DNA of 64,000 bases from Amphiura filiformis (GCF_039555335.1 NC_092646.1:58010946-58074945), one strand, 5' to 3'. Positions 32,576-63,902 are shown, counted from the stretch's first letter. Notes: generated by a model not told the origin, from the sequence alone. Made by a program: numbers and translations.

Positions 32576-32600
32576 GACTGCACGTCATACACCACCTGAC

Positions 32601-37060: not shown

Positions 37061-37237
37061 CAATCTCTTCTTTTCTCAGCAGCTCTTCTATGTCTACTGC
37101 TTTCATCTCCTTTTTGTCTTCGTCCTTCATAAATAACAATAAGAGTATGATAATAATGAAAACTATTATTATAGACAGTTTGTATTCTTTGGAGCATTTG
37201 CTTGATGATGAAAGCACTCATATGGCAACATGCAATG

Positions 37238-37424
37238 TGCTATTCCAGTTGAAATCTCTACACCCACTATGGAAGACATGACCTTAATCTCCCATACAGG
37301 GAGTGTGAATTTCAAATGGAGTTACCTGAATGAGTGACTCCATTTGAAATCGACACCCCCTGTATTTGAGATTAAGGTCATGCCTTCCGTGGGGAGGGGG
37401 GATCTCAACTGGAATAGCCCAATG
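37238..37424. mobile_element. MITE family A, complete copy
   Basis: Same consensus with terminal inverted repeats. Confidence 0.8.
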
Positions 37425-37477
37425 ATATTGTAAAATCAGGCTTTTGCATGCCCAATTGATACACCACAGTTACATGC

Positions 37478-41866: not shown

Positions 41867-41899
41867 ATTACAAGAACTGGTGCCACCATCGGCATATTG

Positions 41900-42300
41900 T
41901 GATAAAAATTTTGTTTGCAAATACAACCAATAATGTGATTGCAACATACAGCTTTAAAATAGGATATATTCCTCCCAGCAGAGGTCAGGCTCATGGTAGA
42001 CAATTAAGAAACAATGCCAATCTCTCCCAACTCCGTGCCTGTACTGACAGGTTTGCTAGGAGTCCAGTTCCTTACTTTGTTAGGCTGCTAAACAGCAACC
42101 CATCCTAATCATGGTTCATCCCTTGCATTGCTTTGCTGTGGATCCTGTTTCTCTTTGGCTGCCATGAGTTCTGACCTCATTTGTTGTTTATATTTATTTA
42201 TTATGTTGTTATATATATATTGCTTTTCTCATTGTTGTTTTTTGCTTATACTTTGTGTACAATAATGTAATTCGGCCTCCGGGCCGCGATTTTGTGCCAA
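41900..42300 (+). mobile_element. LINE 3' fragment
   Basis: The ORF ends ...RACTDRFARSPVPYFVRLLNSNPS, the same family tail motif as the fragment at 10.4 kb. An AT-rich tail follows. Confidence 0.45.
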
Positions 42301-42399
42301 TAAAATCATATCAAAATCATATCATATCATATATTCACAAGTTTTGTAGCTCAAATGTCAAAATGTCCAAAATTAGACTTAATTGGAACAGATCACAAT

Positions 42400-42705
42400 A
42401 AATGTAACCTGCTACCACGAAATGAGCATAAAGTCGCAAGTTGCTATTTTCAAGACATCCTGGCTACGTATACTGCGTTGATATTCTTTGTTTCACACAC
42501 ACCTGTTCAAGCCAATAGCATGTCTGTATGTCATTGGTGAATGGAGGCACATGGGGCCATTCACAAAGGACATACTACTGGCTTGTACAGGTGCGTGGCA
42601 AATTAAGAACATCAACTCAGCAGCCAGGATGTCTCAAAACTAGCATCTTGCAACTTTACACTCATTCTGTGGTAGCAGGTCACATATTTGATTCCATACC
42701 TTGTC
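42400..42705. mobile_element. Small TIR element (family C; TIR CAAATATGTGACCTGCTACCAC) beginning exactly at the donor of the exon at 42700
   Basis: The inverted arms lie at 42408-42480 and 42625-42700. A partial paralogue lies at 20090-20292. Confidence 0.5.
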
Positions 42706-42882
42706 TCTCGTTTCCACGGCAACAAAACTAGTGAATTGTGTCACAATTGAGTACTCTTTACTCAACTCGATTATGTAGTTTTTCTGCTCCGTTTTCTTCA
42801 CTTCATGTTCTGTTCGGTTGACATCAAGCGTTCCATCCTCCCAGTCTCTTATGATGGCACGTGCTGTCAGCTGATGCAGCAT
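42700..42882 (-). CDS. VWA5A/ITIH-like C-terminal exon (MLHQLTARAIIRDWEDGTLDVNRTEHEVKKTEQKNYIIELSKEYSIVTQFTSFVAVETRDK)
   Basis: The LSKEYSIVTQFTSFVAVE motif is typical of the VWA5A/ITIH C-terminal region. The acceptor is ttgtag| and the donor AAG|gtatgg. The exon is 183 bp, phase 0. Confidence 0.55.
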
Positions 42883-43427
42883 CTACAATGGGTCAAAGGT
42901 CATATTCAAGTATGTTCACTGTCTACTAAACCAACCAAAATTTTCATCCAATGGAATACAAATTAGGGTACAATATTGGCTCAGACTGTCAACAAAAAAT
43001 ATGGATATTGGTCCCAGATAGGTCGACCGAAGATATGAGACAATTTTGTTTGTATTTTATGCAATATAATCACATTTTTATTTCCACAAGTTTAGCTTTC
43101 TTACAGGTTCTTGAGCTGAGACAAATAATGTATCAAATAATGTAAAAAAAAAGTTATGGAAATTTTTTCATTATGAAAAAATCATACATATGAGTCGGAA
43201 ATAACACCTTATATCAAACCTTAAGATCTCCTTTATAGAAACCATAACATTCCTCTTCAACTTTATTTGTCTCAATATTTAAGTGCAAGCTATTAATATC
43301 TTAAATATATAACTAACACCTTGCCCATCAGAAAAAAATCTTTAGTTTTGGGACCAATGTACAAATTCTGTATCAAAATGTAAACTAAATATGTTCCGCT
43401 AATATAGCTAGTTGACCTTTGACCTAC

Positions 43428-43508
43428 CTTGCCTTCAGTGATACTGAGGTCATGAGTAGATACCATAGTTGAGACTTCCTTCCCAGCAATCATTGCTTTC
43501 AGTGTTGC
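43428..43508 (-). CDS. Probable C-terminal exon of a VWA5A-like gene (ATLKAMIAGKEVSTMVSTHDLSITEGK)
   Basis: The acceptor is ttttacag| and the donor AAG|gtaggt. The exon is 81 bp, phase 0 to 0. Confidence 0.45.
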
Positions 43509-44149
43509 CTGTAAAATGTCAACAATTACAGTTATAATAATTACCGGTACGATTACACTCTGAATTTCAAGTACAGGACGTTTTTTGTTTGAAGTGGCTT
43601 GACCAGATTGACATCCCTCATCCCCCACCACTTTAACCCCTTCAAAATATAGATTTAAGGTCATATTGTTCTCATAACCCCAGTGAAATTCCAGGCCTGG
43701 AATATGTTTTCGTACAGGTGGTATGAAAAATAACATGGTAAAGCATTTTCCACCCTGATGTGGCAGTGATGTCAGTGCGCATTTCATTGGGCTCAGCTAC
43801 AAATCACGTACACATGCACACACTTAAAGATGCCGCATAGATGCGTGCACAAAACAGCTGCCTAAACGCTTTGCATCACTGCTACATCAGGGTGGAAAAT
43901 GCATTAACTAGGCGATTACATTAACACCTGAAGTTGTGTACTTTTGCTATGGGCCATTACAGTTTGTCCACTCTGAAATACAAAGTGACAACGCGCGCGT
44001 AAACAGTGCGTAGTGCTGCATCTCTGCTGCAGGTATGCGTGCCTTCCTTCAAAGTCGGCACAATGTGTGCGTCCGCGTCGATACTTTGTACTTCAGACTA
44101 GACAGACTGTAGGGTACACAAGTTTGCTTCTATAATCCAAATTGCTTGA

Positions 44150-46621
44150 GCAATTTAACTCCAAACTCAGAATAAGAATATTTGGGTGATTTGGCCTCAA
44201 TGTGAGGTAGAATACACAATGTGTTACACTTGGACCACAATCTGGTCATGCACCTTTAACTCCAAACTCAGAATACGAATGTTTGGGTGATTGGCCTCAA
44301 TGTGAGGTAGAATACACAATGTGTTACACTTGGACCACAATCTGGTCATGCACCTTTAACTCCAAACTCAGAATACGAATGTTTGGGTGATTGGCCTCAA
44401 TGTGAGGTAGAATACACAATGTGTTACACTTGGATCACAATCTGGTCATGCACCTTTAAGGGTGATTGGCCTCAATGTGAGGTAGAATACACAATGTGTT
44501 ACACTTGGACCACAATCTGGTCATGCACCTTTAACTCCAAACTCAGAATAAGAATGTTTGGGTGATTGGCCTCAATGTGAGGTAGAATACACAATGTGTT
44601 ACACTTGGATCACAATCTGGTCATGCACCTTTAAGGGTGATTGGCCTCAATGTGAGGTAGAATACACAATGTGTTACACTTGGACCACAATCTGGTCATG
44701 CACCTTTAACTCCAAATTCAGAATAAGAATATTTGGGTGATTGGCCTCAATGTGAGGTAGAATACACAATGTGTTACACTTGGACCACAATCTGGTCATG
44801 CACCTTTAACTCCAAACTCAGAATATGAATGTTTGGGTGATTGGCCTCAATGTGAGGTAGAATACACAATGTGTTACACTTGGACCACAATCTGGTCATG
44901 CACCTTTAACTCCAAACTCAGAATAAGAATGTTTGGGTGATTGGCCTCAATATGAGGTTGAATACACAATGTGTTACACTTGGACCACAATCTGGTCATG
45001 CACCTTTAACTCCAAACTCAGAATAAGAATGTTTGGGTGATTGGCCTCAATGTGAGGTAGAATACACAATGTGTTACACTTGGACCACAATCTGGTCATG
45101 CACCTTTAACTCCAAACTCAGAATAAGAATGTTTGGGTGATTGGCCTCTCTGTGAGGTAGAATACACAATGTGTTAACAACACTTGGACCACAATCTGGT
45201 CATGCACCTTTAACTCCAAACTCAGAATATGAATGTTTGGGTGATTGGCCTCAATGTGAGGTAGAATACACAATGTGTTACACTTGGACCACAATCTGGT
45301 CATGCACCTTTAACTCCAAACTCAGAATAAGAATGTTTGGGTGATTGGCCTCAATGTGAGGTAGAATACACAATGTGTTACACTTGGATCACAATCTGGT
45401 CATGCACCTTTAAGGGTGATTGGCCTCAATGTGAGGTAGAATACACAATGTGTTACACTTGGACCACAATCTGGTCATGCACCTTTAACTCCAAACTCAG
45501 AATAAGAATGTTTGGGTGATTGGCCTCAATGTGAGGTAGAATACACAATGTGTAACACTTGGATCACAATCTGGTCATGCACCTTTAAGGGTGATTGGCC
45601 TCAATGTGAGGTAGAATACACAATGTGTTACACTTGGACCACAATCTGGTCATGCACCTTTAACTCCAAACTCAGAATAAGAATGTTTGGGTGATTGGCC
45701 TCAATGTGAGGTAGAATACACAATGTGTTACACTTGGATCACAATCTGGTCATGCACCTTTAAGGGTGATTGGCCTCAATGTGAGGTAGAATACACAATG
45801 TGTTACACTTGGACCACAATCTGGTCATGCACCTTTAACTCCAAACTCAGAATATGAATGTTTGGGTGATTGGCCTCAATGTGAGGTAGAATACACAATG
45901 TGTTACACTTGGACCACAATCTGGTCATGCACCTTTAACTCCAAACTCAGAATATGAATGTTTGGGTGATTGGCCTCAATGTGAGGTAGAATACACAATG
46001 TGTTACACTTGGACCACAATCTGGTCATGCACCTTTAACTCCAAACTCAGAATACGAATGTTTGGGTGATTGGCCTCAATGTGAGGTAGAATACACAATG
46101 TGTTACACTTGGATCACAATCTGGTCATGCACCTTTAAGGGTGATTGGCCTCAATGTGAGGTAGAATACACAATGTGTTACACTTGGACCACAATCTGGT
46201 CATGCACCTTTAACTCCAAACTCAGAATAAGAATGTTTGGGTGATTGGCCTCAATGTGAGGTAGAATACACAATGTGTTACACTTGGACCACAATCTGGT
46301 CATGCACCTTTAACTCCAAACTCAGAATAAGAATGTTTGGGTGATTGGCCTCAATGTGAGGTAGAATACACAATGTGTTACACTTGGATCACAATCTGGT
46401 CATGCACCTTTAAGGGTGATTGGCCTCAATGTGAGGTAGAATACACAATGTGTTACACTTGGACCACAATCTGGTCATGCACCTTTAACTCCAAACTCAG
46501 AATAAGAATGTTTGGGTGATTGGCCTCAATGTGAGGTAGAATACACAATGTGTTACACTTGGATCACAATCTGGTCATGCACCTTTAAGGGTGATTGGCC
46601 TCAATGTGAGGTAGAATACAC
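44150..46621. repeat. Satellite A, block 1: about 28 copies of alternating 100-bp and 75-bp units
   Basis: The unit is gggtgattggcctcaatgtgaggtagaatacacaatgtgttacacttggaccacaatctggtcatgcaccttta[actccaaactcagaataagaatgttt]. Confidence 0.9.
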
Positions 46622-48423
46622 AGCGGTTTTCCACTTTTTAAGCCCAGTACTGGGCCAGTGTTGGGCAAGATCTAGCGGCACGGATTGAGCTATAAAAATG
46701 CCCCAATACTAGGCGGCAAAAGTGACACTTTTATTGGGCCAATTCTAGCGTACTCGCAATTGCCCAGTTCAAGCCACAAGTACTGGCCCAGTTCTAGTAG
46801 TACTACGGGCTGTCCCTAAAGTTGCCTGAAATTAAAATTATTTTCATGGGACGCCGTGTTTGGTTATCATGTTTATTGTATTTATTCTCGGAACCAGTAC
46901 TATTTACCCAAAAAGCTAACATTTAGCAGTATGAATAAGCAGTATTATAGACGTGTGAATTGGTTTGTGAGTTTGGCACAGCTTTAACTACTGAGTGAAG
47001 TTCAACACCGTGGTGTTTTATGTAACGGTAAGTAAATCATGACATTTTTTAATGAGTATGATACATGGATAAGCCGCAGTATGCATGTCATTGTATGCAT
47101 GTATCAATACTATCATTGTATCAATGTATGCATGGTATGCATAGTCACTGTAGTAGACTTGTAGTATAGCATGGCTAAGCCTAGAGCTTTTTGATTGTTT
47201 TATTTTTGTTTCAATTTCTCTAACCAGTTGTGTATGGCACCGTATAAATATCGTCATGATCATTAAGCTTAATCATTGTCAGGTAGGCCTAAAGTATTAT
47301 TCAGATTTCCTTTTACAAATTAAGCGTACTGCTAGCTGTCCAGCGCATCTTATTTTGCACATGGTCCAATGCACACGCTTGACGTCGCGCACGTATATGC
47401 GATGGTTAATTTGTAAAAGGAAATCTGAATATTACTTTAGTGTTCATACATACGTGTTATATTGGTCGATAGGCGGGCATAAACAACATTTATGCCCTGC
47501 TTTCTGGTCGTAAACAAGCCGCGTCAGAACCGATGAACGCCATGAGTAGGATATCTGCAGCGTATGCTTATGAAAGCTATTTACATAAAGCGCGAATGAT
47601 GTCTGCGATGTTCGTGGCGTCCAAACACGGTGGACTGAGCAAGTAAACGTTTTCTTACAATTAGCAATGGAAAAACTTTTAAAAAGGATTAGAAATTGAT
47701 AGTTTTTAGACTAAAATGACGATATTTTTTAGTTGTGGAGGAAAATAACAGCACTCAGAATGTTGTGTATGTATGAACGGGGTTCATTCATATATTTTCA
47801 GGACTAAACGTTGTTTATGCCCTCGGGCATAAACAATTGTTTAGTCATGAAAATATATGAATGAACCCCTAAATCATCAGTGACAGTGGCGTGCCATGCC
47901 CCCCACTTTTGTTGGTCATTCGGGGGAAAATGTTAAAAACGTCAAAATTTGCTGCTAATCAGACTCCATTCGGGGAACTTAACAACCTGCCCACCCCCCC
48001 CCCCCCCCCACCCCACTTTCAATGTGCTGGCCACGCCACTGGTCATCATAGGTAGATGGGAGAAATTTTGTCCCCGGAATTTTGTTTGCACAAACCATGA
48101 CTGGGCCGCTATTTAAAACGCTATACTGGCAAAAAGTGCCAAAGAACTACATGTACGGTAGTGTAGGCCTACCATTCTACTATCTTTCTTCAACTCATTT
48201 GACTCGTAACAATTTGATAGAGAGAGACTGGGGAGTGCGCGCATTTGTGAGCACAGTGCATTTTTTTATGTCGAGCATATCTACATGTAGGCATTAAACC
48301 ATGTTAACAGCTGAAATCTGGGCGATAATGCTGACGAAACTTCGACCAGGCACAATTAGTGACCTGGTGAACGAAGGGGCCGCCGTGGATAGCTGGTCGG
48401 GGATTTTTTGCAGGACAGTCAAG

Positions 48424-48890
48424 TGTAGCCAACAATCAGGCTTATTACCCTGATTGGAACCGACTGTAACATCAAGGTCTTTTGTCATTGGTCATCTGCC
48501 CTGCCATTACCAGATGAGCCACGGGAAGAGCAGAATTATTTTTTTTTGTCCTGCGAGGAATTGAACCGGGACCTCTTGCACAAAGTGTGCTTTGCGATAT
48601 TATGCGTGACTGACACATGCTTTTATGAATTTATACAAGTGTAAATTGTGACTTGTAGCCAACAATCGGGCTTATTACCCTGATTGGAACCGACTGTAAC
48701 AAGGTCTTTGTCATGGGTCATCTGCCCTGCCATTACCAGATGAGCCACGGAAGAAGCGGAATTAATTTTTTTTGTCCTGCGGGAATTGAACCCGAGACAT
48801 CTTGCACAAAGTGTGCTTTGCGTGACATGCGTGACTGACACATGCTTTTATGAATTTATGCGAGTGTAAATTGGGACTTTTGGGCAACAA
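48424..48890 (-). repeat. Two tandem copies (about 232 bp each) of a tRNA-derived SINE-like unit
   Basis: There is a near-identical duplication. The minus strand shows GGGTTCAATTCC and GGTTCAATTCC T-arm-like boxes. Confidence 0.55.
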
Positions 48891-49755
48891 AAACAATATT
48901 AAATTTCCTAAAATTGTAAAATGTTGCTAATTAAAACAGTGTTTAATTAAATCGAATATGAATGAGAATAAACAATATGATATAAACCCAAGGTAGGGGG
49001 TCACTGTCATCAAAAGCATGGACTCTGATTGGGACTCCCTTTAGTCTATATAAAATTGATGTTTTGGTTCTTGCCCTCTCCCTCCTGGCCTCATCAGTGT
49101 CTGGGGTTTGTCAGATTTTTTTTTCTTTTCTCAAAACATTAATTTTATACGACCTTACAAGCCTTGGGCCATTTGATTCGAGCACTTCAGGCTACAAAAA
49201 GTTGGGGGTCAACAACAATAACTGGGCAAAAAATATTTCCGTCAGTACATTCACAGGTTTGGGGTGCCAATTTGTATCCTTTCCCCTGCGCACCACAAAC
49301 CCGGATTAGCACACAGGCACTTATAAACAATGAGTGAAGCTTATCACAGGTAGGCAGGCTCACATCACACACTATAGGTGGTGCTATTCGTCCATAGGGA
49401 AGTGGAATGTGCCTGTACGGTCCAAAAATGGCTTTACTGTGGGGCTCAATGGAAAAAATCAATATATTTTGACAACCAAAACCTAAATGACTTTGACTTA
49501 CTTTGGTACTGGCATAATACTGGATTCATAACATAGTGCAATATATATGATCCACCAAGTCGACACTCGTTAAAGCGCAAATGCAATTTGTGTGTAAATC
49601 AAGACCAACCAAAACAGCTTTCTTGCAGTAAAGAATAGGAGGTCATCTGGGGTCACATACAGTAGTGTACATTGTACATGTGCCTACTGTCACAATTTCA
49701 CACACAAAACTTTGGGCAATTTGGTGACGCTATTTTTGTCTGTAACTTCAAAACA

Positions 49756-50048
49756 GGGCTGTCAACTCTCACGCATTGGCCGTGAGTCTCACGCATTGGG
49801 TCACTTTCTCATGGTCTCACGCCAAGGTAGTATAATCTCATGCCTGAAAGTAAATCTCACGCAAAAAGCTGAAAATTGAGTAAAATCTCACGCATCGCCA
49901 TGAAAAAATTGTTGTTGCTACCCCCAGCTTTTCACATTTTCGAGCGCCGTGGCTTAGATAATCATGGGTCAAAATGAACATTGAAGTCGGCAAATCCCGG
50001 TACGCCTGTCTCACGCCAAGCAATTCCAAAAAGTTGACAGCCCTGCTT
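49756..50048. mobile_element. Small MITE (TIR CAGGGCTGTCAAC) with six internal tctcacgca motifs
   Basis: cagggctgtcaactct at 49756 pairs with ttgacagccctg at 50037. Confidence 0.6.
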
Positions 50049-50261
50049 CAAAAGTATATGCACTAGAAACATCATTGACCCCTTATTGTTTAGGTAATTT
50101 GATTCTCTTTCAAATGAAAGAACTTTCAGCTAAAAAATATTAAACTTCAAAATTTTATGAACATCCCTATCACAGGCATGAGACTGCACTTTCCTAAAAA
50201 AACTAAAATGCAAGTACCCAAAAGCCATTGCACTATAATCATGTCAAAAAGTAAATTTTAA

Positions 50262-52170
50262 CCTAGGGAGTGTTCAGAAATACACTGGTGGGGGGCTGGA
50301 AAATATACACTATGACCAGCTCTTAATAGGCGGGAATTATTTGGTTTTTGTTACTGCGCTAGTCAATCAAGTTCCAACTTACGCACGCGTATATTCACAA
50401 AAGCACGCGTCTTAACGCAAAGCGCAGTTCGCGTAACTGCTGCGCCCAGCTGTGTGTCACAAACCAGTTCACACGTCTATAATACTGCTTATCTATATCA
50501 AATTATCAATGTTATGAGTCCCCGCCTATTAAGAGCTGATCAGAGTATAGGGGGTCATAAAATTTTAGGAGTTCTGAATAGGGGGGTAAAAAGTTTTGGG
50601 TGTATATGAACAGGTGGGGTTAAACAATTTTCGGTACGTAGGAGGGGGTAAAAAACTTTTGTACCAGTATTGAACCACAACAAAAGTGCATTTGATCCAG
50701 TGTTAAAAATTGCCTGGCCTCCAGACTTGTACCCGAGTCCAGCTCATCCGAGTCCGGATTGGAGTCCAAGTCCAGTGGTGACAAGTCCGAGCCAAGTCCG
50801 AGTCCAACAAAAATAAGCCCCAAGTCCAGCTCAAGTCCGGACTCGGTCAGAGTTCATGCCATTTTTTTGGGGGGAGGGGGGTCATTACTGACAAAATTTT
50901 GAAAGAAGGGGTTCATTTGGTATAACATTTTGAAAAAAAATGGATCACCGGGTGGAACATAATTTCAAAAAATGGAGCAAAATTTAATATTTTGTTTCTA
51001 ATTTAAAAATTTGACAGTTTCTGCTTTTAAATTATATGGAATTTTGAAGATAAAATTGTACAAAAAGAAGGTCATTGGTCAAAGATCACTACACCCCACC
51101 ACATATTGCTCTCCTATACAAACCCACCCTACCAAACCCCACCCCACCCCATCAACCAACCATACATATTTCACTTCAAAGACACATACATGTACAGGTA
51201 ACTCCTGAAGGTACTACATGTATCAGACCACCTGTATCAGAAAGCAGTCAGGTGGGGGTATTTGCGTGTGTGCCGGGGTACGGGTGTGACACACAGCTAC
51301 ACACTGCATGTATTGTCAACTCACAGTGCCATGCCCTATAGGTTGTGTGCAGCATACATGTAAATGAAGGGCAATGTATTCAAATATTATAGAAAAATAT
51401 CATCATCATCATCATCATCATAACTGAAAGTTACCTTTTCAGAAATATTTGGCTGTGTGATATTAATTAATATTTATAAATTATAAACATCTCAAAATTG
51501 GACAAATGTCCCAGACAAATGTGCAGTGAATAGTGAGCACACAGACACCCTAGCCCTCAGGGATGAGTACCAATTTACTGGGTGGGAGCTGAGATGTATA
51601 TGGCCCAGTCTCTCTAAAAACAAAACCGGTATGTATTTGCAACTGCAATTTCTTTTTTCGTCTGTGCCACTGTGCTACGCCCCTGAATTTTGGGCTAAAA
51701 TGGTCTAAGATTTTTGCGTGTCACCGCGCAACAAAATTCCCAGTAAAACCAGAACAAAATATACTCGTCCCCGACCCCCCTAAATTATAATGTTTCCGTC
51801 GCCACTGATTCCAATCATAAATGTATAGTTTATTAATACTCAGGGGGTTCAGTGGGTTGCATAAACATACTTATGCTACTTTAATTTGGAACATTTCCTC
51901 AATTCCACATATTCTATACCAATGAAATGAGTACTATTTCATTGCACATGAATACAAATTTTAGCATCATTAATATGTTTCCTCTGCCATTTGATGTAGA
52001 ATGGTACATTATGATGGGGGGGGGTTAAAATAGTTTTGAACCTATATGAAGGGGGGTCAAAAAAGTTGTGGGTTCGCGAAGAGGGGGGGGGTTAAAAAAA
52101 ATTTCGACATGAAAAATAATTTTTTCCAGCCCCCACCAAAGTATTTCTGAACACTCCCCTATAAAGGATC
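50262..52170. mobile_element. Putative 1.9-kb TIR element
   Basis: gggagtgttcagaaatac...ctggaaaa at 50265 is inverted relative to ttttttccagcccccaccaaagtatttctgaacactcccc at 52125-52165. There are subterminal ggggg(t)aaaaagttttg repeats. Confidence 0.4.
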
Positions 52171-55100
52171 CACAGGCTGTAAGATTCCACTGCCCCTATT
52201 AAATACATGATAAAAGGCTACCAAAAACTTTCATAATTTTGTAAAAAACTTAACAATTTTATGTTAAAAAGTATTTAGAGAGAACTTAGAATGTGTGAAA
52301 ATTTGAAGACCCAATTTTGAAAAAACCTTATTTCCCAGGGAAAGATCTGAGAGCAGGCCACACCATGACCAGATGATTAAACTAAGCCATGCAGTATGTA
52401 TTTCTCAAACACTATCCATAGTTTGTTCTTATTAAGCCCATTGCACGGTTCTGCCATTCATGCAAGGAGAGCCTCGATCTGGCAGCATGCATGAATGGGA
52501 ATTGAACCAGTCATATAACATTGCGTAAAGTTACGTAATACTTCCTTTCATGTCTATTGCCAGTTCAAAGTTCTCCTCGCATATGGCGGAATGGTGCAAT
52601 AGGCGAATTGAACATGTTGAATGGGTTCTATGGATGAAGGAGGCATGGACTCCAACATGTTTCTTTGCATCTGGGCCAGTGATTTATAACAAAACTGTAT
52701 CTTCAGGCAATACTGAATTTTGTGCTTGTTATTTTGTTGCAATTTTTGCCTAAGTCACTTGTGTGGGTGTGCATGCATATTTTCCTCATCATGTTCATTT
52801 GCTATTTTTAAATGATTAATTTCAGTATGCTTAAATTTATACATGTACATCTCTTGTCTTTTATTTTCTGGGGTATTAACTATAATAAGGGTCTGGTTTT
52901 TGTTTTATTATTCAGGTGCAGATCACTTCAGATCACAGAAGACTTGTACATGTATCAATCGAGGACATGTTTTCTGCATATTGATCATCATTAAATACAT
53001 GTAAATTGATGTAATGCTGCAATACATAAAGGCACCCTGGTGGAAGGTGTCAGAAGTCACAACTGACAGAAATTTATGCAATGAAATTGCTATTTTGACC
53101 AGACTAATAACAGAACAAAATTAATGTAAGTGTGAATCGCTGAATTACTGTAAGTCACAATGTATGGTTTTAAATGAATTTCTTTATCAAACCTGATTTG
53201 TTTTGCATATATTTGTTTACACATGTCCCATCTTAATGAAATCCAGCCAAGTTCATCAATTGTGCCTGAAGGACAACAGAGCAATTTAAAGATATTAAAT
53301 CTCCTACAAAACACCACAGTTAAGCAGTAAGTGCATGGGTAAGATATAGTAAACTTGTGGATTTGCTGACCAAATTCATTTGCCCGGTACCGTAATTAAG
53401 TTGTTCTGGGACACCCTGTACATCTACATGTATGTATTTTCTCAAATGCATTGCTAGAATTGGTATGGTACCCTTCTTTGGTAGCAAATTATCCACCCTC
53501 TTTTCTGTCATGGACTAGTAAAGGTGGGTGACTAGATTGCCAGCCTCATCCCGGAGCCTCATCCCCCCACTTAATTGGTATCCCATCAGTATGCAGATTT
53601 TGTTATCAGGTGAAATCTCATAATTTCTCATAACCCCAGTGAAATTTTAGGACTGAAATAGATAGTTGAGGCAGTATGAACAAAAACATGGTAGTTGAGT
53701 GGTTATAACCCCAGTAACAGGGCGCAAATTTGCCTGCCCTTTTTAGATCGGCCGAAGGAAAAGACCTTATGGCATCATGAGCACAGCATTTTTATACAGT
53801 TAGTTTGGAATTGGGTGGAGTTAAAAATGGGTCCAGAGCATAAAATCTCAAAACAGCGCCCTCTCCCGAGGGACGGATAACCTTGTGGACAGTTCGCTAT
53901 GGTCACGAAATTTACAGGGTAGAATTATGTTGATCCACCCTTACCGTGTGCTATTAGGCAACTTCCTATTGAAACTCCTTCAAGATGTACTGTTCTATGA
54001 AAAACTGGAATACAGATAATTCTAGAATCCAAATCACTGGAGCAAATTTGGAATAAGAATGTTTGGGTGACGTGCCTCAATATGAGGTAGAAAACAAAAA
54101 GTGTTACACTTGGACCACAATCTGGTCACACACCCTCAAGATTTTTAATGATGTTGATTTCAAAATATCATTGAACAACAAGGTTTAAAATAGTCGGGGT
54201 TGTTGTCTACTGAAGATAACACTATGCTTGAAATATCATTAGTGAGTAGTGTAATGTAACAAATAAGATGGACTGTAAAAATAATACATAGGATTGAAAG
54301 TGCAGCCTGGGAAGTGCAAGGATTTTAAGAACATTTTACACTATAACTTGACAGGCTTCAGCTGTGGATAACAATAATTTCACAGGCTTCTGCTGTGGAT
54401 AATAATAATGAAATTGTCCAACAACTCTGTTTATAACTTTTGTATCAATATTGTTATTTTGTTGTTTCAGAAAGGACCGTCAGAAAGTACCATGACTTGA
54501 TCAACAGCGTTGACAGTGCCATGGTGGCAGTGAAAGTAGTCGATTGGGATCACTGAAAATCAATATCATGGAGACCTCACATCTTCCACTGTAATGCTTG
54601 TTAAAATGCTCGGACTCTACATATCCTTAGCCTTCACTATGATAGGAATGCATGCCTTTCAGACCAATTGCAGCTACATGTACCAACCAGGCTGGAATGC
54701 CTTGGACACTTGAACACAAAGTGGAAATATACTAGTACCTTTATTTCCAAGCAAGTAAATGTGAAGCTGGAAAATGTGGAAAATAGACTTTTAAACTCAA
54801 AAATTTCAGAAAACTGTTGGTGTTCTACATACACAATCAGTATCATGACTTCCAATTGGTGGAGAATCAGGAAAGCAATCACTTTATTGCACAAATATTC
54901 TCACAGGATAGATTAGCAGAATATAATAAGGTGGTTGAAAATCCTCAGTAATGCTATGAAACATTTTTAATTCTGGATTGTGAGGGTAACAGATTATCTG
55001 ATTAAGAAATAAAGGGTAAATCCGTCACTCGGCGGAAAAGCCTCATATGCACTTTTGGCCATTGAACATATGAATAAAGCCTTGTAGGTGTAGACTTTAT

Positions 55101-56299
55101 ATTGAAGAGTTTGCTTCATCCATGTTCAAGGGCCAAAGTACATGCAGGAAAAAAGTCATATTTACTTTTGGCCCTTGAACATGGATAAAGCCTTGTAGGT
55201 GTAGACTTTATATTGAAGGGTTTGCTTCATCCATATTCAGGGGCCAAATGTACATATGACAAAATATTTATACTACCCTAAAATCAGAAAGGTTCTACAT
55301 GAAATAAACTTGAGACTGAAAAGAAGACTGAAAAGAAGCATGATCATTTATTATGCACCAAACATGAAGGTACATGTTTTATACATTTATGTCACTCTAG
55401 GATTTATGACACCTAATGATGATATTAATGGTTCAATCCTAAATACTGAAGGTCAAATCTATTAAAAAGCAGATTTAAGATAAGATGTGAAAATTGCAAT
55501 TTTGTTCAAACCTAATACAAGGTTGATTTTTAAATTTCAATTATATTTGAAATAACTGCACTTCATTGAGCGAGTCTCAGTCTCCATTATTTTTTTAGGT
55601 CAAGTAAAATAACATGTATATTGTCCCTTCCCTCATCCATTTTTGGCAATTTGTTCAAGCTAGTGGTAGTAATACCGTCAAAAATATCAGGGCCTCCACA
55701 TTTTTATGTGTTGACAAAGCCTTTGCAATTGAAATTTTACACAGAAATGAATAGTAAATTTGTAACAAATAATAACTGCTTCCAGACAATATACATGTTA
55801 TTTATTTTACTTGGCCTTAATATGTAATCTTCCAGGACTTATCAGGCAAATATAATAACCCTGGAATTACGGGCTATTGGGCTATGTGATTGCAAATTGT
55901 TTTTATTAATGCCTTTTTTAATAAAAATTTGGGCCAAAAAAAAACCTGTTTATATTTTTTTTGGGGGGATTTTCTCCAAAAAATAGTATTTTTGCCTAAA
56001 TTTGACCTCACAGATGAATCCATCAAGTTATGAGGATGAGGCCCAAAAATGTTCATAATTCCTGGGTTAAAACCACCCATTAACTCTTTCAATGACATTG
56101 TAAAAAACAAAAAGGGGGTTCAAGGCTTATTTGGGGATTTTTGTACGGGGATGTACCACACTTTCAGATGCTGATTCTACCTACTTCTTGCTGTTTTTAC
56201 CACCCCGTCAGTATACTAATTGCCTTGGGCGCTTTTAGGGGCACTTGTGGTGGGGTCTCCCCTGTCAGTCCGAAACACCGTCAATCCGAACCCCTGTCA

Positions 56300-58320
56300 G
56301 TTCGAAAGTCATTTCAGAAAGAAACAAATTTTGCATAATTTCAGAAAAGGAACTTTTTACAAAGACGTCATTTCAGAAAAAGGCGACTTTTTTAAAAGGA
56401 TGTCATTTCAGTAAAAGTGATTTTTTTAAAAGATGTCATTTGAGAAAAGGCAACTTTTAGTCAGAAAAAAAAATATATTTAAAGACATTTAAAAAATTGG
56501 TGACTTTTTATTTAAAAAGAAGTCATTTCAGAAAAAAGCGACTCTTTTTAAAGACGTCATTCCAGAAAAAAAGGTGCTTTTAAAAGACATTATTTTAGAA
56601 AAGGTGACTTAAAAAGAAGACATCATTTCAGAAAAAGGCGACTTTTTCAAAAAGAGACGTCATTTCAGAAAAAAGGTTGACTTTTTAAAAAGATGTCATT
56701 TGAGAAAAAAGGCTACATTTTATAAAAAGATGTCATTTCATAAAAGGCGATTTTTTTTTTTAAATACGCCATTTTAGAAAAGGCAACTTTTTCGGAAAGA
56801 TGTCATTTTTAAAAAGACGTCATTTCAGAAAAAGGTGACCTTTTTAAAAAGACGTGATTTCAGAAAAAGCGACCTTTTTTAAAAAGACATTTCAGAAAAA
56901 GGTGGCTTTTAAAAAGATGTCATTTGAGAAAAAGGCTACTTTTTATTTTAAAAGATGTCATTTCAGAAAAAGGCGACTTTAAAAGACATTTCAGAAAAAG
57001 GCAGCTGTTTTAAAAAGAGATTTCGTAAAAAAGCGACTTTTTAAAAAGACATTTCAGAAAAAAATGTGACTTTTTATAAAGACGCCATTTCAGAAAAATG
57101 TGACTTTAAAAACGTCATTTTAGGGAAAAGGCTCACTTTTTTAAAAACGTCATTTCAGAAAAAAAGGCGACTTTTTTAAAAAGATGTCATTTCAGAAAAA
57201 GCAACCTTTTTAAAGACATTTCAGAAAAAAGGGGACTTTTTAAAAAGATGTCATTTGAAAAAAAGGCTACTTTTTATTTTAAAAGATGTCATTTGAAAAA
57301 AAGGCTACTTTTTATTTTAAAAGATGTCATTTCAGAAAAAGGCGACTTTTTTAAAGATATTTTAGAAAATGGCGGCTATTTTAAAAAGACATTTCAGACC
57401 TTTTGTAAAAAGACATTTCAGAAAAAGGTAACTTTTAAAAGACATTTCAGAAAAAGGCGGCTGTTTTAAAAAAAGACATTTAGAAAAAACGCGACTTTTT
57501 AAAGACGTCATTTAAGGAAAAAAACAGGAAAAAACAACTTTTAAAGACGTCATTTCAGAAAACGGTGACTTTTAAAAGACATTTCAGAAAAAGGCAGCTG
57601 TTTTAAAAAGACATTTCATAAAAAACTACTTTTAAAAAAAACATTTCGGAAAAAAAATGTGACTTTTTATAAAGACGCCATTTCAGAAAAAAAGGTGACT
57701 TTTTTAAAAAGATGTCATTTCAGAAAAAGCGACCTTTTTAAAGACATTTCAGAAAAAAGGTGACTTTTTTAAAAAGATGTCATTTGAAAAAAAGGCTACT
57801 TTGTATTTTAAAAGATGTCATTTGAAAAAAAGGCTACTTTATATTTTATAGATGTCATATCAGAAAAAAGCAACTTTTTTAAAAAGATGTCATTTCAGAA
57901 AAAATTTGACTTTTTTTAAAGACGTCATGTCAGGAAAAAAAAGCAGACATTTCAGAAAGGCGACTTTTTATAAAGACGCCATTTCAGAAAAATGTCACTT
58001 TTTAAAGACGTCATTTTAGGGAAAAGGCGACTTTTTAAAAAAGATGTCATTTCAGAAAAGAAGAAACTTTTTAAAAAAGACGTCATTTCAGAAAAAGGCG
58101 ACTTTTTTTAAAAAGTCGTCATTTCAGAAAAAAGGCAACTTCAGTAAAAAGACGTCATTTCAGAAAAAAAAGTGATTTTTTCAAAGATATTCTTTAAAAA
58201 TGCGACTTTTTAAAGACGTTATTTCAGGGCAAAGGCAATTTTTTTAAAGACATCATTTCAGAAAAAGGAGACTTTTTTAAAGATGTCATTTCAGAAAACA
58301 AAAAGCAAGACTTCCTTTTT
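56300..58320. repeat. Satellite C: about 35-bp minisatellite (aaagacgtcatttcagaaaaaggcgacttttttaa) x about 55
   Basis: The periodicity is clear. Most units carry GACGTCA, which is 7 of 8 positions of the CRE palindrome TGACGTCA. Confidence 0.85.
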
Positions 58321-59526
58321 GGCAGAACCCCAAAAGTCCGAAGCCATGTCAGTCCGAAACCCCGCTAAACACAGGGGCTAAACAAAAACGACTTAGATGA
58401 AAAAAAGATGGCATTTTAGGAAAAAAGCTTAGGCCTTTTTTTTTTTTTATAAAGACGTATTTTTAGGAAAATGCTACTTTTCATAAAAAAGCAACCTTTT
58501 AAATTAAAAAACGACTTTTAGTAAAAATTATTTTTTGTCGGAACCCCATCAGTCTAAAACCCCACATCGTTTTTGTAAAAAAAAAATTATAAAGACTTTA
58601 GTTTTAGAAAAAGGCTTAACATTGACAAAAAAGAGATAGTGAAATTTCCGATTCACACCTTTAAAATATGGCCTAGCCTAAAATGGATTTTTTATTTACA
58701 AATAGGCCTATGGCCTAGCTCAAAAATTGCCTTGCACTTGCTTTTTCACTGAGAAAGAACACTGATCGAAACCGTTAAACTAATAGGCCTAGGCCTAAGC
58801 TGATCCAAATAAATTGCATTTCGGCTACACACAAGGCATGTACTGTAGGCCTACCGTATCATTTTTTTGAAGGCCGTTACCATTTACAACTCTCATTGTA
58901 CTGATTCCTTATTTAGGCCTACTCGAACGTTCAAAAAATAGGGTGTTACATAATTTATACACTATATATATACAGTACAAGTTGGAATAGACATATAGTC
59001 TTGTAGACGTAGGCCTGGTATTCGTGCATTTGCTATGCCTATGCGTATGCATGAGGCTTGGCAAAGCCAGGCTTGTTTTTAATATAAATTGCTTAAAAGT
59101 TGCAATTTATATTATACGAAGGCTCAGCATCGGGGCCTATAATTCATATCCACAACGAGGAAGTTCTAATATTATTTAAAAGCCTAAAAACTGGCTTCCA
59201 AATCCAGACGCGTGAACATGGTGAAACGGGTGAAAAAACTCAAAACATAATTGATTGGGAACTGTTTCGCTAGTACGAGCGCGTCACCCACAAGTACTTG
59301 GCCAGATCTGGTGAAATAATTACTGGGCCAGTCAAAGTCGGCTGGCACTAGGCACAGATCCGGCGCAATTGCGAGCCCAATACGTGGCGCTAGTAGTTGC
59401 CCAGTACTAGCCGACTTTGTCTTGCCCAGTGCTAGCGCTGACTTTTTCTAGCCCAGTACTGGTGCTAGTACTGGGCGAGTGATAAAGCGGCTTATTACTG
59501 GCCCAGTACTGGTAGAAGTTAGCTGT

Positions 59527-60960
59527 GTACACAATGTGTTACACTTGGACCACAATCTGGTCATGCACCTTTAACTCCAAACTCAGAATACGAATGTTTG
59601 GGTGATTGGCCTCAATGTGAGGTAGAATACACAATGTGTTACACTTGGATCACAATCTGGTCATGCACCTTTAAGGGTGATTGGCCTCAATGTGAGGTAG
59701 AATACACAATGTGTTACACTTGGACCACAATCTGGTCATGCACCTTTAACTCCAAACTCAGAATAAGAATGTTTGGGTGATTGGCCTCAATGTGAGGTAG
59801 AATACACAATGTGTTACACTTGGACCACAATCTGGTCATGCACCTTTAACTCCAAACTCAGAATAAGAATGTTTGGGTGATTGGCCTCAATGTGAGGTAG
59901 AATACACAATGTGTTACACTTGGATCACAATCTGGTCATGCACCTTTAAGGGTGATTGGCCTCAATGTGAGGTAGAATACACAATGTGTTACACTTGGAC
60001 CACAATCTGGTCATGCACCTTTAACTCCAAACTCAGAATAAGAATGTTTGGGTGATTGGCCTCAATGTGAGGTAGAATACACAATGTGTTACACTTGGAC
60101 CACAATCTGGTCATGCACCTTTAACTCCAAACTCAGAATAAGAATGTTTGGGTGATTGGCCTCAATGTGAGGTAGAATACACAATGTGTTACACTTGGAT
60201 CACAATCTGGTCATGCACCTTTAAGGGTGATTGGCCTCAATGTGAGGTAGAATACACAATGTGTTACACTTGGACCACAATCTGGTCATGCACCTTTAAC
60301 TCCAAACTCAGAATATGAATGTTTGGGTGATTGGCCTCAATGTGAGGTAGAATACACAATGTGTTACACTTGGACCACAATCTGGCCATGCACCTTTAAC
60401 TCCAAACTCAGAATATGAATGTTTGGGTGATTGGCCTCAATGTGAGGTAGAATACACAATGTGTTACACTTGGACCACAATCTGGTCATGCACCTTTAAC
60501 TCCAAACTCAGAATAAGAATGTTTGGGTGATTGGCCTCAATGTGAGGTAGAATACACAATGTGTTACACTTGGATCACAATCTGGTCATGCACCTTTAAG
60601 GGTGATTGGCCTCAATGTGAGGTAGAATACACAATGTGTTACACTTGGACCACAATCTGGTCATGCACCTTTAACTCCAAACTCAGAATATGAATGTTTG
60701 GGTGATTGGCCTCAATGTGAGGTAGAATACACAATGTGTTACACTTGGATCACAATCTGGTCATGCACCTTTAACTCCAAACTCAGAATATGAATGTTTG
60801 GGTGATTGGCCTCAATGTGAGGTAGAATACACAATGTGTTACACTTGGACCACAATCTGGTCATGCACCTTTAACTCCAAACTCAGAATATGAATGTTTG
60901 GGTGATTGGCCTCAATGTGAGGTAGAATAGAATAGAATAGAATAGAATAGAATAGAATAG
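59527..60960. repeat. Satellite A, block 2, ending in (GAATA)7
   Basis: Same unit; the microsatellite lies at 60925-60960. Confidence 0.9.
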
Positions 60961-61215
60961 ATTTATTAGTGGAGGCGCACTCCAAACACAATCTTACATG
61001 GCAGTGTAACCAAGCTCAACATGACCGAAAAAATGTATGAACCATATCACTTCGCAGCAAAACTGCAGCCACAAAAAGGCGCAAACTGACAAGGTTACAC
61101 AACCTTGAAGTGATATAGAAAATACATTAGTACAATTGAGCAGAATTACACTGAATTGCATAAAATTGGTGACAAAAACACAAACAAGCAAAACAAAAAG
61201 GATAAAAACTGAAAG

Positions 61216-61557
61216 TTATGAACCACCACAAGGGTGGCAATTGTCTCGATGACAAGGCCAATGTTCAGATTGATGACGAGTTGAACAGTACTTTACAGTT
61301 TTACATCTAGCACAAAAACGGAGACCAAACTTGTTTGACGAATCTGCCGAGCAAGTAGGCAGAGCACAAAAATGCAATGAGTCATTGGCGTCCGGAATTC
61401 CAGGAGTAACCATAGAAACGCATGGCAAAGATGGTGTCAAAAGTTCAGAATTGGTTGCATATGTTGAAATTGATGATGAATTACTTGAAATTGGAGTTGA
61501 AATCTCACAATGTGTTACACAATGTGTAACACAAATGTGTAACAATGTGTAATACAC
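61216..61557 (-). CDS. ORF ending in a MYND-type zinc finger (CALPTC...FCARCKTVKYCSTRHQSEHWPCHRDNC)
   Basis: The spacing C-x4-C...C-x2-C...YCS-x2-HQ-x3-W-x2-H-x3-C fits the MYND consensus; it is the HQ variant seen in the EGLN-type MYND. The ORF lies between satellite blocks and its N-terminus derives from satellite-like sequence. Confidence 0.4.
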   Translation of the reverse strand: MYYTLLHICVTHCVTHCEISTPISSNSSSISTYATNSELLTPSLPCVSMVTPGIPDANDSLHFCALPTCSADSSNKFGLRFCARCKTVKYCSTRHQSEHWPCHRDNCHPCGGS

Positions 61558-62405
61558 AATGTGTTACACTTGGACCACAATCTGGTCATGCACCTTTAAC
61601 TCCAAACTCAGAATATGAATGTTTGGGTGATTGGCCTCAATGTGAGGTAGAATACACAATGTGTTACACTTGGACCACAATCTGGTCATGCACCTTTAAC
61701 TCCAAACTCAGAATATGAATGTTTGGGTGATTGGCCTCAATGTGAGGTAGAATACACAATGTGTTACACTTGGACCACAATCTGGTCATGCACCTTTAAC
61801 TCCAAACTCAGAATACGAATGTTTGGGTGATTGGCCTCAATGTGAGGTAGAATACACAATGTGTTACACTTGGACCACAATCTGGTCATGCACCTTTAAC
61901 TCCAAACTCAGAATATGAATGTTTGGGTGATTGGCCTCAATGTGAGGTAGAATACACAATGTGTTACACTTGGACCACAATCTGGTCATGCACCTTTAAC
62001 TCCAAACTCAGAATAGGAATGTTTGGGTGATTGGCCTCAATGTGAGGTAGAATACACAATGTGTTACACTTGGACCACAATCTGGTCATGCACCTTTAAC
62101 TCCAAACTCAGAATACGAATGTTTGGGTGATTGGCCTCAATGTGAGGTAGAATACACAATGTGTTACACTTGGACCACAATCTGGTCATACACCTTTAAG
62201 TTAGTGTTTTCTATATCCATGGTGATTGGCCTCAATGTGAGGTAGAATACACAATGTGTTACACTTGGACCACAATCTGCACCTTTAAGTTAATGTTTTC
62301 TATATCCATGGTGATTGGCCTCAAGGTGAGGTAGAATACACAATGTGTTACACTTGGACCACAATCTGGTCATACACCTTTAAGTTAGTGTTTTCTATAT
62401 CCATA
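61551..62405. repeat. Satellite A, block 3 (uniform 100-bp units with degenerate terminal units); it abuts the donor of the vWA exon at 62461
   Basis: Same unit. Confidence 0.9.
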
Positions 62406-62460
62406 GTAATTCCAGACAATAATAAATAACAAAGCTACTTCCATTTTTACCTTAGTACAA

Positions 62461-62721
62461 AATGGCACATATCCATAGACAACTTGTCGAGATCCACTAA
62501 ACAATGAAGTGATCTGACTGGGTGCTTGAATTGGTCTTGGTGCGTGGTTATCAAACTGTTGCCATTCCACACTGACTGATGTCAACACCGGATGAGAAGA
62601 TTTGTTCAGTTGAGACTTGATCTTTCCTTCCCATTTGGATTTCACTTTGCTGTCAAAGAACTGGAATGCTCCAGCACCGACTCGTGCAAGCGCCCTCAGT
62701 AGATGACGATTGGCTGTGGAA
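62461..62721 (-). CDS. Next exon of the VWA5A-like gene (SSTANRHLLRALARVGAGAFQFFDSKVKSKWEGKIKSQLNKSSHPVLTSVSVEWQQFDNHAPRPIQAPSQITSLFSGSRQVVYGYVPFCTK)
   Basis: Its phase is compatible with the exon at 63126. The acceptor is atttatctcag| and the donor AAG|gtaaaa. It encodes the end of the vWA domain plus following conserved region. Confidence 0.65.
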
Positions 62722-63125
62722 CTGAGATAAATGCCATAAAACACAATTACCAAAAAAAGACCGAAACCTTATTTCTTTCTCTCTTACAGTTACAGTTGAT
62801 CGCTGAACAATAGGCCCTCAATTCACTCAACAAGGGAGGCGGCTTACGTCACAACTTGGCAGAAGATCCCTCAGAGGTTTGGCTCATCTTGACCTGTGGC
62901 ACAACATCCGCATCACAAGTCAACAAACTTTTGCCATGCTAACATCAGTGGGCCTGATGATGCATCCGAGATAAGATGTGAAATATTGCCACTCATCAAA
63001 ACATAAGTCCAGTAGATCAAATTATAATATCTCAATGCAAGTTCATACTTTCGTATAATACATATAGTTCAAAAAATGTGTATTTCACGATAAGTTTTCA
63101 GTTTTAATTATCAAGACATTCTCAC

Positions 63126-63384
63126 CTGACACCAAATGTAAACAAGCGAGTATACATAGCGTTGTCATGTACGGCATTCAATGTAGCTTCTTCATTGTTG
63201 ATGTGCCCGTCAGATATCAAGAACACATTCCGCAGTGTCTCCGCTTTGAGTAAAAAGTAAGCATGTAATGGATGCCAGGCTTCTGTGCTACCCATGGAAG
63301 CCTCTAAGCTGTTGACGAATGTCTGGGCTTTCTTTGTGTTGATGTCATTCTTGGGTTGGCTGCTTGCGAAAAGTTCATCAAATG
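63126..63384 (-). CDS. vWA-domain exon of a VWA5A/ITIH/PARP4-family gene (FDELFASSQPKNDINTKKAQTFVNSLEASMGSTEAWHPLHAYFLLKAETLRNVFLISDGHINNEEATLNAVHDNAMYTRLFTFGV)
   Basis: LEASMGSTE...PL and VFLISDG...RLFTFG match the vWA motifs of the ITIH/VWA5A family (ADMGGTEI..PL and FLLTDG...FsFGIG). The acceptor is cactcccag| and the donor CAG|gtgaga. Confidence 0.7.
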
Positions 63385-63437
63385 CTGGGAGTGAAGACAA
63401 TAATATTGGTGAGTAGATTAGATTCATGAATATTTAA

Positions 63438-63625
63438 CTATTCCAGTTGAGATCCATACACCCCCGTATGGAAGATATGGCCTTAATCTTCCACAAAGGA
63501 GGTGTAGATTTCAAATGGAGCTATCAATTCAGGTAACCCCATTTGAAATTCACACTCCCTGTGTGGAAGATTCAAGTTATGTCTTCCATATGGGGCGTCT
63601 GTATTTCATCTGGAACAGCACAATG
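63438..63625. mobile_element. MITE family A, complete copy, immediately 5' of the vWA exon
   Basis: Same consensus. Confidence 0.8.
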
Positions 63626-63902
63626 CAGTAACTGCTTTGTCAATACTTTCTTTTCATTGGAAAACAGGTGACAAAAAGCTGTAGATTTTACATCACCAAA
63701 TACTGTCTCTTGAGTACTTCCGTCCCGATCGGCAGTGTTTTTATATTGTGAATACTGTGACACACCTATATATATCAATATTAAAACCACAAAAAACTAA
63801 TTTAAAAAAAAGTAAAAAAAAGTTCCAAGGCCTTTATCATACATAATTTATAGCTTAAAAAGCGTGTGTAAAAAAGAAAAAGAAAAAGAAATGTATATTC
63901 GT

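Follow-up and report, generated by a model that had tools for sequence, protein, structure and literature searches.

VWA5A, ITIH and PARP4 all belong to the VIT-VWA superfamily, and a C-terminal motif of the FTSFVA(V/I) type is shared with VWA5A and ITIH. Giant introns that bear satellite DNA are known from the Y-linked fertility genes of Drosophila and from many other genes, both vertebrate and invertebrate. A combination of the two subjects is found in a stretch of 64,000 nucleotides from Amphiura filiformis (GCF_039555335.1 NC_092646.1:58010946-58074945; this whole stretch is the window, and positions are counted from its first letter). Four exon pieces (A-D) and a series of exons downstream of them form, with a probability of roughly 0.8, one minus-strand gene resembling PARP4 (vault PARP). 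The window carries the 3' two-thirds of this gene, and the 5' end lies past position 64000. As in the giant satellite introns, tandem repeats and remnants of transposons have enlarged a conserved intron, here more than tenfold, and have left the exons intact. The expansion is modest beside those systems, 19 kb and not megabases; what distinguishes the locus is the presence of two tandem arrays built from the gene's own exon-intron junctions.

The window consists of AT-rich eukaryotic DNA (about 38% GC) with many tandem repeats. When the joined exons A-D were compared with a set of 5.8 billion proteins, the top named matches were PARP4-like according to their NCBI names. The protein of the crinoid Anneissia japonica (P0001) showed 69% identity over 99% of the query and that of the brachiopod Lingula anatina (P0002) 64% over 100%, and no protein in the set exceeded 83% identity. 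Among all PDB chains, phmmer returned human PARP4 as the sole match (11jf, 9bw6 and 9bw7; E = 2.9e-81), and no ITIH chain appeared at E <= 0.01. Residues 3-336 of the spliced A-F product align with residues 923-1254 of human PARP4 (chain 11jf_P) at about 50% identity. The aligned part comprises the latter half of the VWA domain, the post-VWA region in full and the ...LPYMSW motif. The label "VWA5A/ITIH-like", given to the locus by the first-pass annotation, therefore holds at the superfamily level only: all named matches are PARP4-like, and ITIH is missing from the PDB matches where PARP4 reaches 2.9e-81.

The 64-69% identity to a crinoid and a brachiopod also raised horizontal transfer, or a gene borne by a transposon, as an origin. 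This was rejected because human PARP4 is still about 50% identical, a sponge homologue (P0015) exists and intron positions are shared; the identity reflects plain strong conservation.

The domain content agrees with a gene entering the window partway. The spliced product matches Pfam VWA_3 (E = 2.5e-6; 28.1 bits, the cut-off being 27) over profile positions 49-155 of 155 only, because the first half of the VWA domain lies beyond 64000. An open reading frame (ORF) at 63122-63427 on the minus strand also gives a weak VWA_3 match. The sequence closest to the window gene is a related contig (L003; ENA ERZ25070167, reached via protein P0016), which carries a compact version of the gene. An ORF matching VIT is located upstream on its same strand, at 3035-3373, and the VIT region of the window gene falls outside the window. 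By tblastx, the contig sequence upstream of exon A has no matching counterpart in the window, which is why the 5' end of the gene is placed beyond it. Any BRCT, PARP catalytic and VIT parts of the gene would thus lie past 64000, outside the partial product of 687 amino acids. At the other end, the alignment stops at residue 1254 of the 1724 of human PARP4, and the C-terminal region that interacts with the major vault protein was not found in the product; this may be a matter of divergence rather than absence. Membership of the PARP4 group is supported for the visible part of the gene, and a C-terminal region of the vertebrate type was not recognized.

The four pieces were placed by tblastn with P0001 and P0002 at 63382-63128 (E = 5e-29), 62726-62442 (4e-42), 43511-43425 (8e-8) and 42882-42706 (2.5e-26), all on the minus strand. 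Residues 134-219, 219-313, 310-338 and 338-396 of P0001 fall on exons A, B, C and D in that order. Together with canonical AG and GT borders (Table 1), these matches bear out the earlier proposal that the pieces share one strand and follow the N-to-C order. Exon A encodes the C-terminal half of the VWA domain (FDELFASS...RLFTFGV). It opens with 2 nt of a split codon and closes with 2 nt (AG) of a split serine codon, and AG/T at the A/B junction restores the serine of ...FGV-S-STANRHLL, as in the homologues. Exon B had been located correctly, but its end had been set at 62461; the true end is 10 nt further, at 62451, and phase 0 is obtained only there. Exon D is 95% identical to the related contig at the amino acid level. 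In the window exon B is undivided. An intron after ...KWE(G/K)K interrupts it in the related contig, Lingula and Anneissia, a difference that would point either to intron loss in this lineage or to a paralogous relationship with the contig.

The first-pass annotation had described exons A-D as the two ends of a gene whose middle exons were not found. None is missing. The last residues of exon B (...YVPFCTK) adjoin the first residues of exon C (ATLKAMIAG...) in the human, Anneissia and Lingula PARP4-like proteins. In P0001 and P0002, ...VVYGYVPFC(R/M)Q leads straight into ATL(R/K)A...STMVST..., followed by ILH(Q/R)LTA..., and human PARP4 aligns without a gap across CTK/ATL of the spliced product, reading ...IPHCTQATLCALIQ... 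Exons between B and C were sought by tblastn with seven homologues and by tblastx with three genomic loci; none was found, because B and C are neighbours in every homologue. Exons A-D are consecutive, and 62450-43509 is a single intron of 18,942 bp at an ancient, conserved position. Mapping of the proteins onto their own loci located the same intron in Lingula (L001, about 300 bp) and Anneissia (L002, about 230 bp), and in the related contig it measures 1,483 bp and contains no tandem array. Prokaryote-style calling on eukaryotic contigs ran past the GT just after C-T-Q (C-x-Q) in four predicted proteins, P0003, P0009, P0010 and P0016.

The contiguity of B and C in homologues is accompanied by signs of selection on both sides of the intron. 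By the Nei-Gojobori method, a comparison with the related contig, in which Ks was saturated, gives ratios of non-synonymous to synonymous substitution rates (Ka/Ks) of 0.029 in exons A+B and 0.056 in exons C-G. Exon C agrees with 11895-11975 of the contig in 27 of 27 residues, with 13 synonymous differences and no non-synonymous one. The low ratios argue that both sides of the large intron have been retained by selection, and the two halves, A+B and C-G, are under strong purifying selection. No second copy of any exon was found within the 64-kb window. Contiguity in homologues, the conserved intron position, the single copy and the purifying selection together sustain the earlier view of one gene with satellite arrays in its introns.

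The gene is also longer than proposed. A range of 42700-63384 had been given, and the four pieces do lie inside it, but the model does not end at 42700: it reaches 20882 and, on the other side, runs past 64000. Within the window the gene spans at least 63384-20882 (minus strand), or 42.5 kb, of which 4.9% is coding. All nine exons (A-I) have AG...GT borders, and spliced in frame they give the open ORF of 687 amino acids. The reading frame of exon E reads ...KDEDKKEMKAVDIEELLRKEEIDTLTYMGWEPTKSPPGQPQTLE, which corresponds to the next segment of the homologues (DEDMSSEGPRIEAILAEEDVDILPYIGW in Lingula and ...VSELIAKEDVDFLPYMSW in human). Exon E was also matched by tblastn with P0006, P0008 and P0015, and the related contig holds it, with its donor, as a single copy at 15125-15263. 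Exon F was matched by tblastx to 16349-16501 of that contig (65%) and by phmmer to P0007, a protein from a metatranscriptome (E = 3e-6); exons E, F and G are collinear with the contig. P0007 aligns without a gap from exon E via F into G, across both junctions, so that the first GTAAGT after exon E is the donor yielding a homologue-like product.

Human PARP4 shows no similarity after about residue 1254, whereas the window gene goes on with a 14-3-3-like part, an N-terminal actin fragment, a proline-rich stretch and an FG-like tail. Beyond the PARP4-like part, the 687-residue product matched Pfam Actin (3e-15) and, weakly, Nucleoporin_FG and 14-3-3. The 14-3-3 match (PF00244) scored 19.4 bits, below the cut-off of 33.2, over positions 130-181 of 223. 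In P0007 a PARP4-like region is likewise followed by a 14-3-3-like stretch, and the match there rises above threshold (34.8 bits) over the same partial stretch only. Searching the proteins again with exons D-H yielded P0007 and three fragments of exons D/E, nothing else, and added no support for the C-terminal architecture.

The last nucleotide of exon G and the first two of exon H form an asparagine codon (A + AT), so that the phases fit. With an actin query, tblastn placed actin residues 2-41 at 25584-25465 (E = 5.5e-14) and residues 41-75 at 21586-21482 (E = 3e-13), and nothing further of actin beyond residue 75 or so was found in the window with this query. The GTAAGT donor of exon H stands at the classical actin intron position, codon 41/42. 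Pfam Actin (PF00022) was matched at 3e-15 over profile positions 2-67 of 410 only, so no complete actin fold is encoded, and where actin has DNGSG the product has DLGLD. P0006, encoded by metatranscriptome contigs L004-L006, shows the same order of parts: a PARP4-like post-VWA part, a linker, actin to about residue 41, a small retained intron at codon 41/42, actin residues 42-75 and a non-actin tail, the actin stopping near residue 75 as in the window gene. Residues 338-382 of P0006 match exon H (tblastn, E = 1e-12), and exon I matches the continuation of the L004 transcript (phmmer, E = 3e-11). P0006 and P0007 are only 42-66% identical to the window gene in the shared parts, and the linker of P0006 between exon E and actin does not align with exons F and G. 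That these two proteins are assembly chimeras with abundant actin or 14-3-3 mRNA was considered and rejected, because the actin and 14-3-3 stretches in them are incomplete and diverged, and because the window and the related contig hold the same parts in genomic order. The literature gave nothing specific on invertebrate PARP4 with actin. The conserved joining of a PARP4-like protein to a piece of actin that spans residues 1-75 and the D-loop, and to proline-rich and FG-like sequence, could hint, though with low probability, at a connection in invertebrates, so far undescribed, of vault-PARP-like proteins with actin-binding partners.

Exon I carries a coding tandem repeat of 114 bp. In the second copy an extra A at about 20912 (GATTAAGTAG compared with GATTAGTAG) causes a +1 frameshift and leads to the TGA; in the unshifted frame the FG-like tail would run on for about 145 amino acids, down to 20476. 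Either the protein is truly truncated here or the extra A results from a homopolymer error.

Two further arrays start inside exons. The 75/78-bp array begins within exon E, and its unit consists of the last ~55 nt of that exon (…YMGWEPTKSPPGQPQTLE), GTAAGT and some 15-18 nt of intron, in the layout ATGGGATGGGAACC...CCCTAGAA/GTAAGTATTGATACACATACCTAT. The motif GAAGTAAGTAT is intact in all 29 units. The array is open in the exon E frame as far as a stop at 36257-36255, so that its first 10 units are open; the stop is the first in frame and is brought in by an insertion of about 530 bp (~35790-36300), which splits the array and contains inverted repeats with a hairpin at ~35800-35960. The related contig has no such array: the end of the exon and the donor (…CAAGAT/GTAAGTAGAAATA) occur there once. 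The final unit of the window array (GTAAGTATAAATA...) most resembles the start of the intron in that contig, which would follow from an origin of the array through duplication in place. The 170-bp array has the same construction at exon H, its unit being the last 24-26 or so codons of the exon, CAG/GTAAGT and about 92 nt of intron. The minus strand of the window has 48 GTAAGT hexamers, and 37 of them fall in the two arrays. The literature gave nothing specific on tandem repeats derived from such junctions.

The contents of the 18.9-kb intron were largely as described in the first-pass annotation. Tandem repeats account for about 7.1 kb of it (38%). The three blocks of satellite A, estimated before at about 4.7 kb, total 4,704 bp by Tandem Repeats Finder (TRF), with units of 100 and 75 bp and higher-order periods of 175, 275 and 375 bp. 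The distance from exon B to the nearest block had been given as 56 bp; it is 67 bp, the block ending at 62383. The minisatellite of about 35 bp with a GACGTCA core was recovered by TRF at 56338-58298, and the orphan MYND ORF was confirmed by Pfam (zf-MYND, 5e-8). Satellite-A blocks 2 and 3 leave an island of 620 bp between them, in which this ORF lies with its N-terminus running into satellite sequence. A protein word search found no relatives of it, and no evidence was found that it serves as an exon of the PARP4-like gene. Of the several transposons that had been claimed, pairs of terminal inverted repeats were found, but the 10 longest stop-free segments of the intron contain no Pfam domain at E <= 0.01, and hence no transposase or reverse transcriptase. 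Exact-match scans of metagenome contigs with satellite A and with the 75-bp array unit returned none.

These data lead to the following picture. The B-C intron would have grown from about 0.2-1.5 kb to 19 kb through a build-up of non-coding DNA: three satellite blocks of 100/75-bp units, the ~35-bp minisatellite, remnants of DNA transposons and a stray MYND-finger ORF. RNA polymerase would transcribe through the repeats, and the spliceosome would join 62451 to 43508. Two exon-intron junctions, the 3' ends of exons E and H with their GTAAGT, would owe their copying to this same proneness to duplicate in tandem. Splicing from the first donor in each array would give a homologue-like protein, and splicing from donors further along the first run of the 75/78-bp array would lengthen it in frame by units of 25 or 26 amino acids. 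Most simply, the accumulation of repeats in the introns would be neutral growth in a genome prone to tandem duplication. From the sequence we infer that the locus is transcribed, that 62451 is spliced to 43508, that the first donors are used and that the repeats built up neutrally.

Several observations weigh against a single working gene, and they bear on two other explanations. Exons B and C stand 19 kb apart, where relatives have no more than 1.5 kb, and the gap holds three blocks of a single satellite; such blocks are well known as places where DNA rearranges and assemblies go wrong. The 5' part could thus end after exon B and the 3' part start at exon C, as two truncated gene pieces joined or parted by a rearrangement or by satellite misassembly, neither of them making a full protein, and the first-pass annotation had already named truncated copies as a possibility; the satellite blocks could have led the assembler to join halves of two paralogues, and the 62451/43508 junction is itself a predicted one. 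A rearrangement or misassembly would, however, need to fall exactly in the B-C intron, at a conserved phase-0 position, with donor and acceptor intact. The pieces lie on the same strand in the right order without overlap or duplication of an exon, Ka/Ks is 0.03-0.06 on both sides of the gap, and a random breakpoint would seldom leave nothing lost or repeated; we regard two truncated pieces as very unlikely. The window shows a part of the gene only, and the 5' exons, with VIT, the beginning of VWA up to its middle and a PARP catalytic domain if there is one, would lie outside it. The membership of exons H and I depends on transcript contigs of another organism together with order, strand and phase, since the related contig stops short of them. 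The apparent +1 frameshift within the coding repeat of exon I may be incipient decay of the locus or a sequencing error. With its premature TGA, it suits a decaying pseudogene or a redundant duplicate overrun by tandem repeats, the functional copy being elsewhere. So do the exceptional repeat load (some 38% of the large intron), the dozens of extra strong donors in the two junction arrays, the insertion inside one of them, and the loss of the internal intron of exon B, by which the locus may be a paralogue rather than an orthologue of the related contig. Eight of the nine exons are nevertheless fully open, every splice site is canonical and conservation is strong; the frameshift takes away just a tail of low complexity and may stem from a homopolymer error, and no second gene copy is visible within the window. 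A pseudogene is accordingly held to be unlikely, and a single PARP4-like gene with a satellite-swollen intron remains the preferred explanation.

Within this single gene, the junction arrays might still have a function. They could provide alternative in-frame donors or cassettes, in steps of 75/78 nt behind exon E and as ...RHQ pieces of 69 nt behind exon H, so that protein isoforms of different length would result. They could also form clusters of binding sites for the U1 small nuclear ribonucleoprotein that affect how a long pre-mRNA rich in repeats is processed. Both 75 and 78 are multiples of 3, the first 10 units can be read through in the frame of the exon, none of the 29 donors is damaged, the 170-bp units hold an in-frame 69-nt segment between AAG and GTAAGT, and two such arrays occur in one gene. 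However, the units are near-identical and the arrays hence young, so that intact donors are no evidence of selection. The 75/78-bp array is open in other frames and on the opposite strand too, the related contig lacks it and P0007 aligns without an extra unit. For the other array, 170 is not a multiple of 3, and one of its units has a stop. A rough chance estimate of our own, which assumes some 13 tandem arrays across the gene and an exon share of 4.9% of its span, gives p ~0.13 for two arrays starting inside exons and p ~0.02 for three, counting the coding repeat of exon I; these values are suggestive, not compelling. A functional role for the arrays is considered highly improbable. If the arrays are nevertheless not an accident, they would point to a mechanism, namely duplication at 5' splice sites coupled to transcription or splicing, or to a function, alongside the link made by the PARP4-like/actin fusion; the chances of this broader reading seem slim.

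Table 1. Coordinates of the features of the PARP4-like gene and of its introns. Positions are those of the window except where the related contig is named; slashes mark exon borders.
Feature	Position	Strand	Description
Exon A	63384-63126	-	cccag/CATTTG ... GTCAG/gtgaga; 91% amino acid identity to L003 7743-7997; Pfam VWA_3
Intron A-B	62722-63125	-	404 bp
Exon B	62721-62451	-	ctcag/TTCCAC ... ACTAAG/gtaaaa; SSTANRHLL...YVPFCTK; ends in phase 0
Intron B-C	43509-62450	-	18,942 bp; tandem repeat ~7.1 kb (38%)
Satellite-A block 1	44154-46622		TRF; 100/75-bp units, 175/275-bp higher-order periods
Satellite-A block 2	59528-60929		TRF
Satellite-A block 3	61551-62383		TRF; 100-bp units, 8.5 copies; starts 67 bp into the intron from exon B
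AT-rich minisatellite, GACGTCA core	56338-58298		TRF; unit of ~33-38 bp
226-bp doublet	48424-48890		TRF
Candidate non-autonomous DNA-transposon remnant	46930-50497		Terminal inverted repeats, 41-nt arms, 93% complementary
Candidate non-autonomous DNA-transposon remnant	50266-52158		Terminal inverted repeats, 38-nt arms
Small palindromes resembling miniature inverted-repeat transposable elements (MITEs)	47289-47440, 47779-47869		Inverted-repeat search
Orphan MYND zinc-finger ORF	61216-61557	-	Pfam zf-MYND 5e-8
Exon C	43508-43428	-	ttacag/GCAACA ... GGCAAG/gtaggt; 27 codons (ATLKAMIAGKEVSTMVSTHDLSITEGK); phase 0 at both ends
Exon D	42882-42700	-	ttgtag/ATGCTG ... GACAAG/gtatgg; 61 codons (MLHQLTARAIIRDWEDG...FVAVETRDK)
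Intron D-E	37125-42699	-	5,575 bp
~1.1-kb unit, ~3.4 tandem copies	37799-41625		Within intron D-E; 97% identity; self-blastn
Exon E	37124-36996	-	43 codons (DEDKKEMKAVDIEELLRKEEIDTLTYMGWEPTKSPPGQPQTLE); acceptor aag/; donor GAA/gtaagt
75/78-bp array	34318-37064	-	TRF; 29 copies (10 + 19); begins inside exon E, fills most of intron E-F
Intron E-F	36995-33937	-	3,059 bp
Exon F	33936-33790	-	49 codons (ISPEETVQDLLQKAHKEE...DDPLYFK); first part of the 14-3-3-like helical region
Exon G	29175-29088	-	29 codons + 1 nt (ALVNAAKFFYDIQDHPGKVEEIFDVGSLE); tblastx to L003 18504-18599, 56%
Exon H	25670-25465	-	Proline-rich linker and actin residues ~2-41; GTAAGT donor
170-bp array	24062-25538	-	TRF; ~8.7 copies; nine copies by tblastn; eight CAGGTAAGT motifs
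Intron H-I	25464-21584	-	5' part occupied by the 170-bp array
Exon I	21583-20882	-	Actin residues 42-75, proline-rich stretch, SLFG/FG-like repeats; TGA 20884-20882
~190-bp MITE-like copies	28405-28592, 32599-32759, 33494-33771, 37226-37430, 63438-63627		Two within ~100 bp upstream of exons E and A
Exons of the related contig (L003)	A 7743-7997; B 9458-9574 + 10235-10408; C 11892-11978; D 13285-13467; E 15125-15263		Compact gene, 85-95% amino acid identity

A satellite-swollen intron in a conserved gene is of a well-known kind and ordinary for an animal gene, and nothing known is overturned by these findings. The donor arrays and the architecture of a PARP4-like part with an actin fragment are less ordinary, a modest curiosity that might repay work. 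For annotation, the nine-exon model is of practical use, as gene finders are likely to break at a 19-kb intron filled with satellite. The locus also provides an example of intron growth, with 0.2-1.5 kb in three other animals against 19 kb here. The junction arrays represent a natural test case for the choice of the spliceosome among dozens of identical strong donors, and the PARP4-like/14-3-3-like/actin-fragment architecture is relevant to the study of vault PARP outside vertebrates.

Other repeats are scattered over the window. The palindromic MITE-like element of ~190 bp occurs in at least five copies of 77-90% identity. A palindromic element of 670 bp is present twice (23397-24066 and 30141-30811), a unit of 890 bp in about three tandem copies (11178-13890) and a unit of 440 bp in two (22376-23258). 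The region seems generally prone to tandem duplication. Downstream of the PARP4-like gene and on the same strand, a fragment of HSP70 was detected at 7487-7831 (Pfam HSP70 7.7e-31, positions 446-538 of 599); isolated as it is, it could be a piece of a pseudogene or an exon of another gene. An ORF at 10440-10919 on the minus strand (…QRRATKFI…YRERL…) has no Pfam match, and presumably corresponds to the C-terminal tail of ORF2 of a non-LTR (long terminal repeat) retrotransposon, which it looks like.

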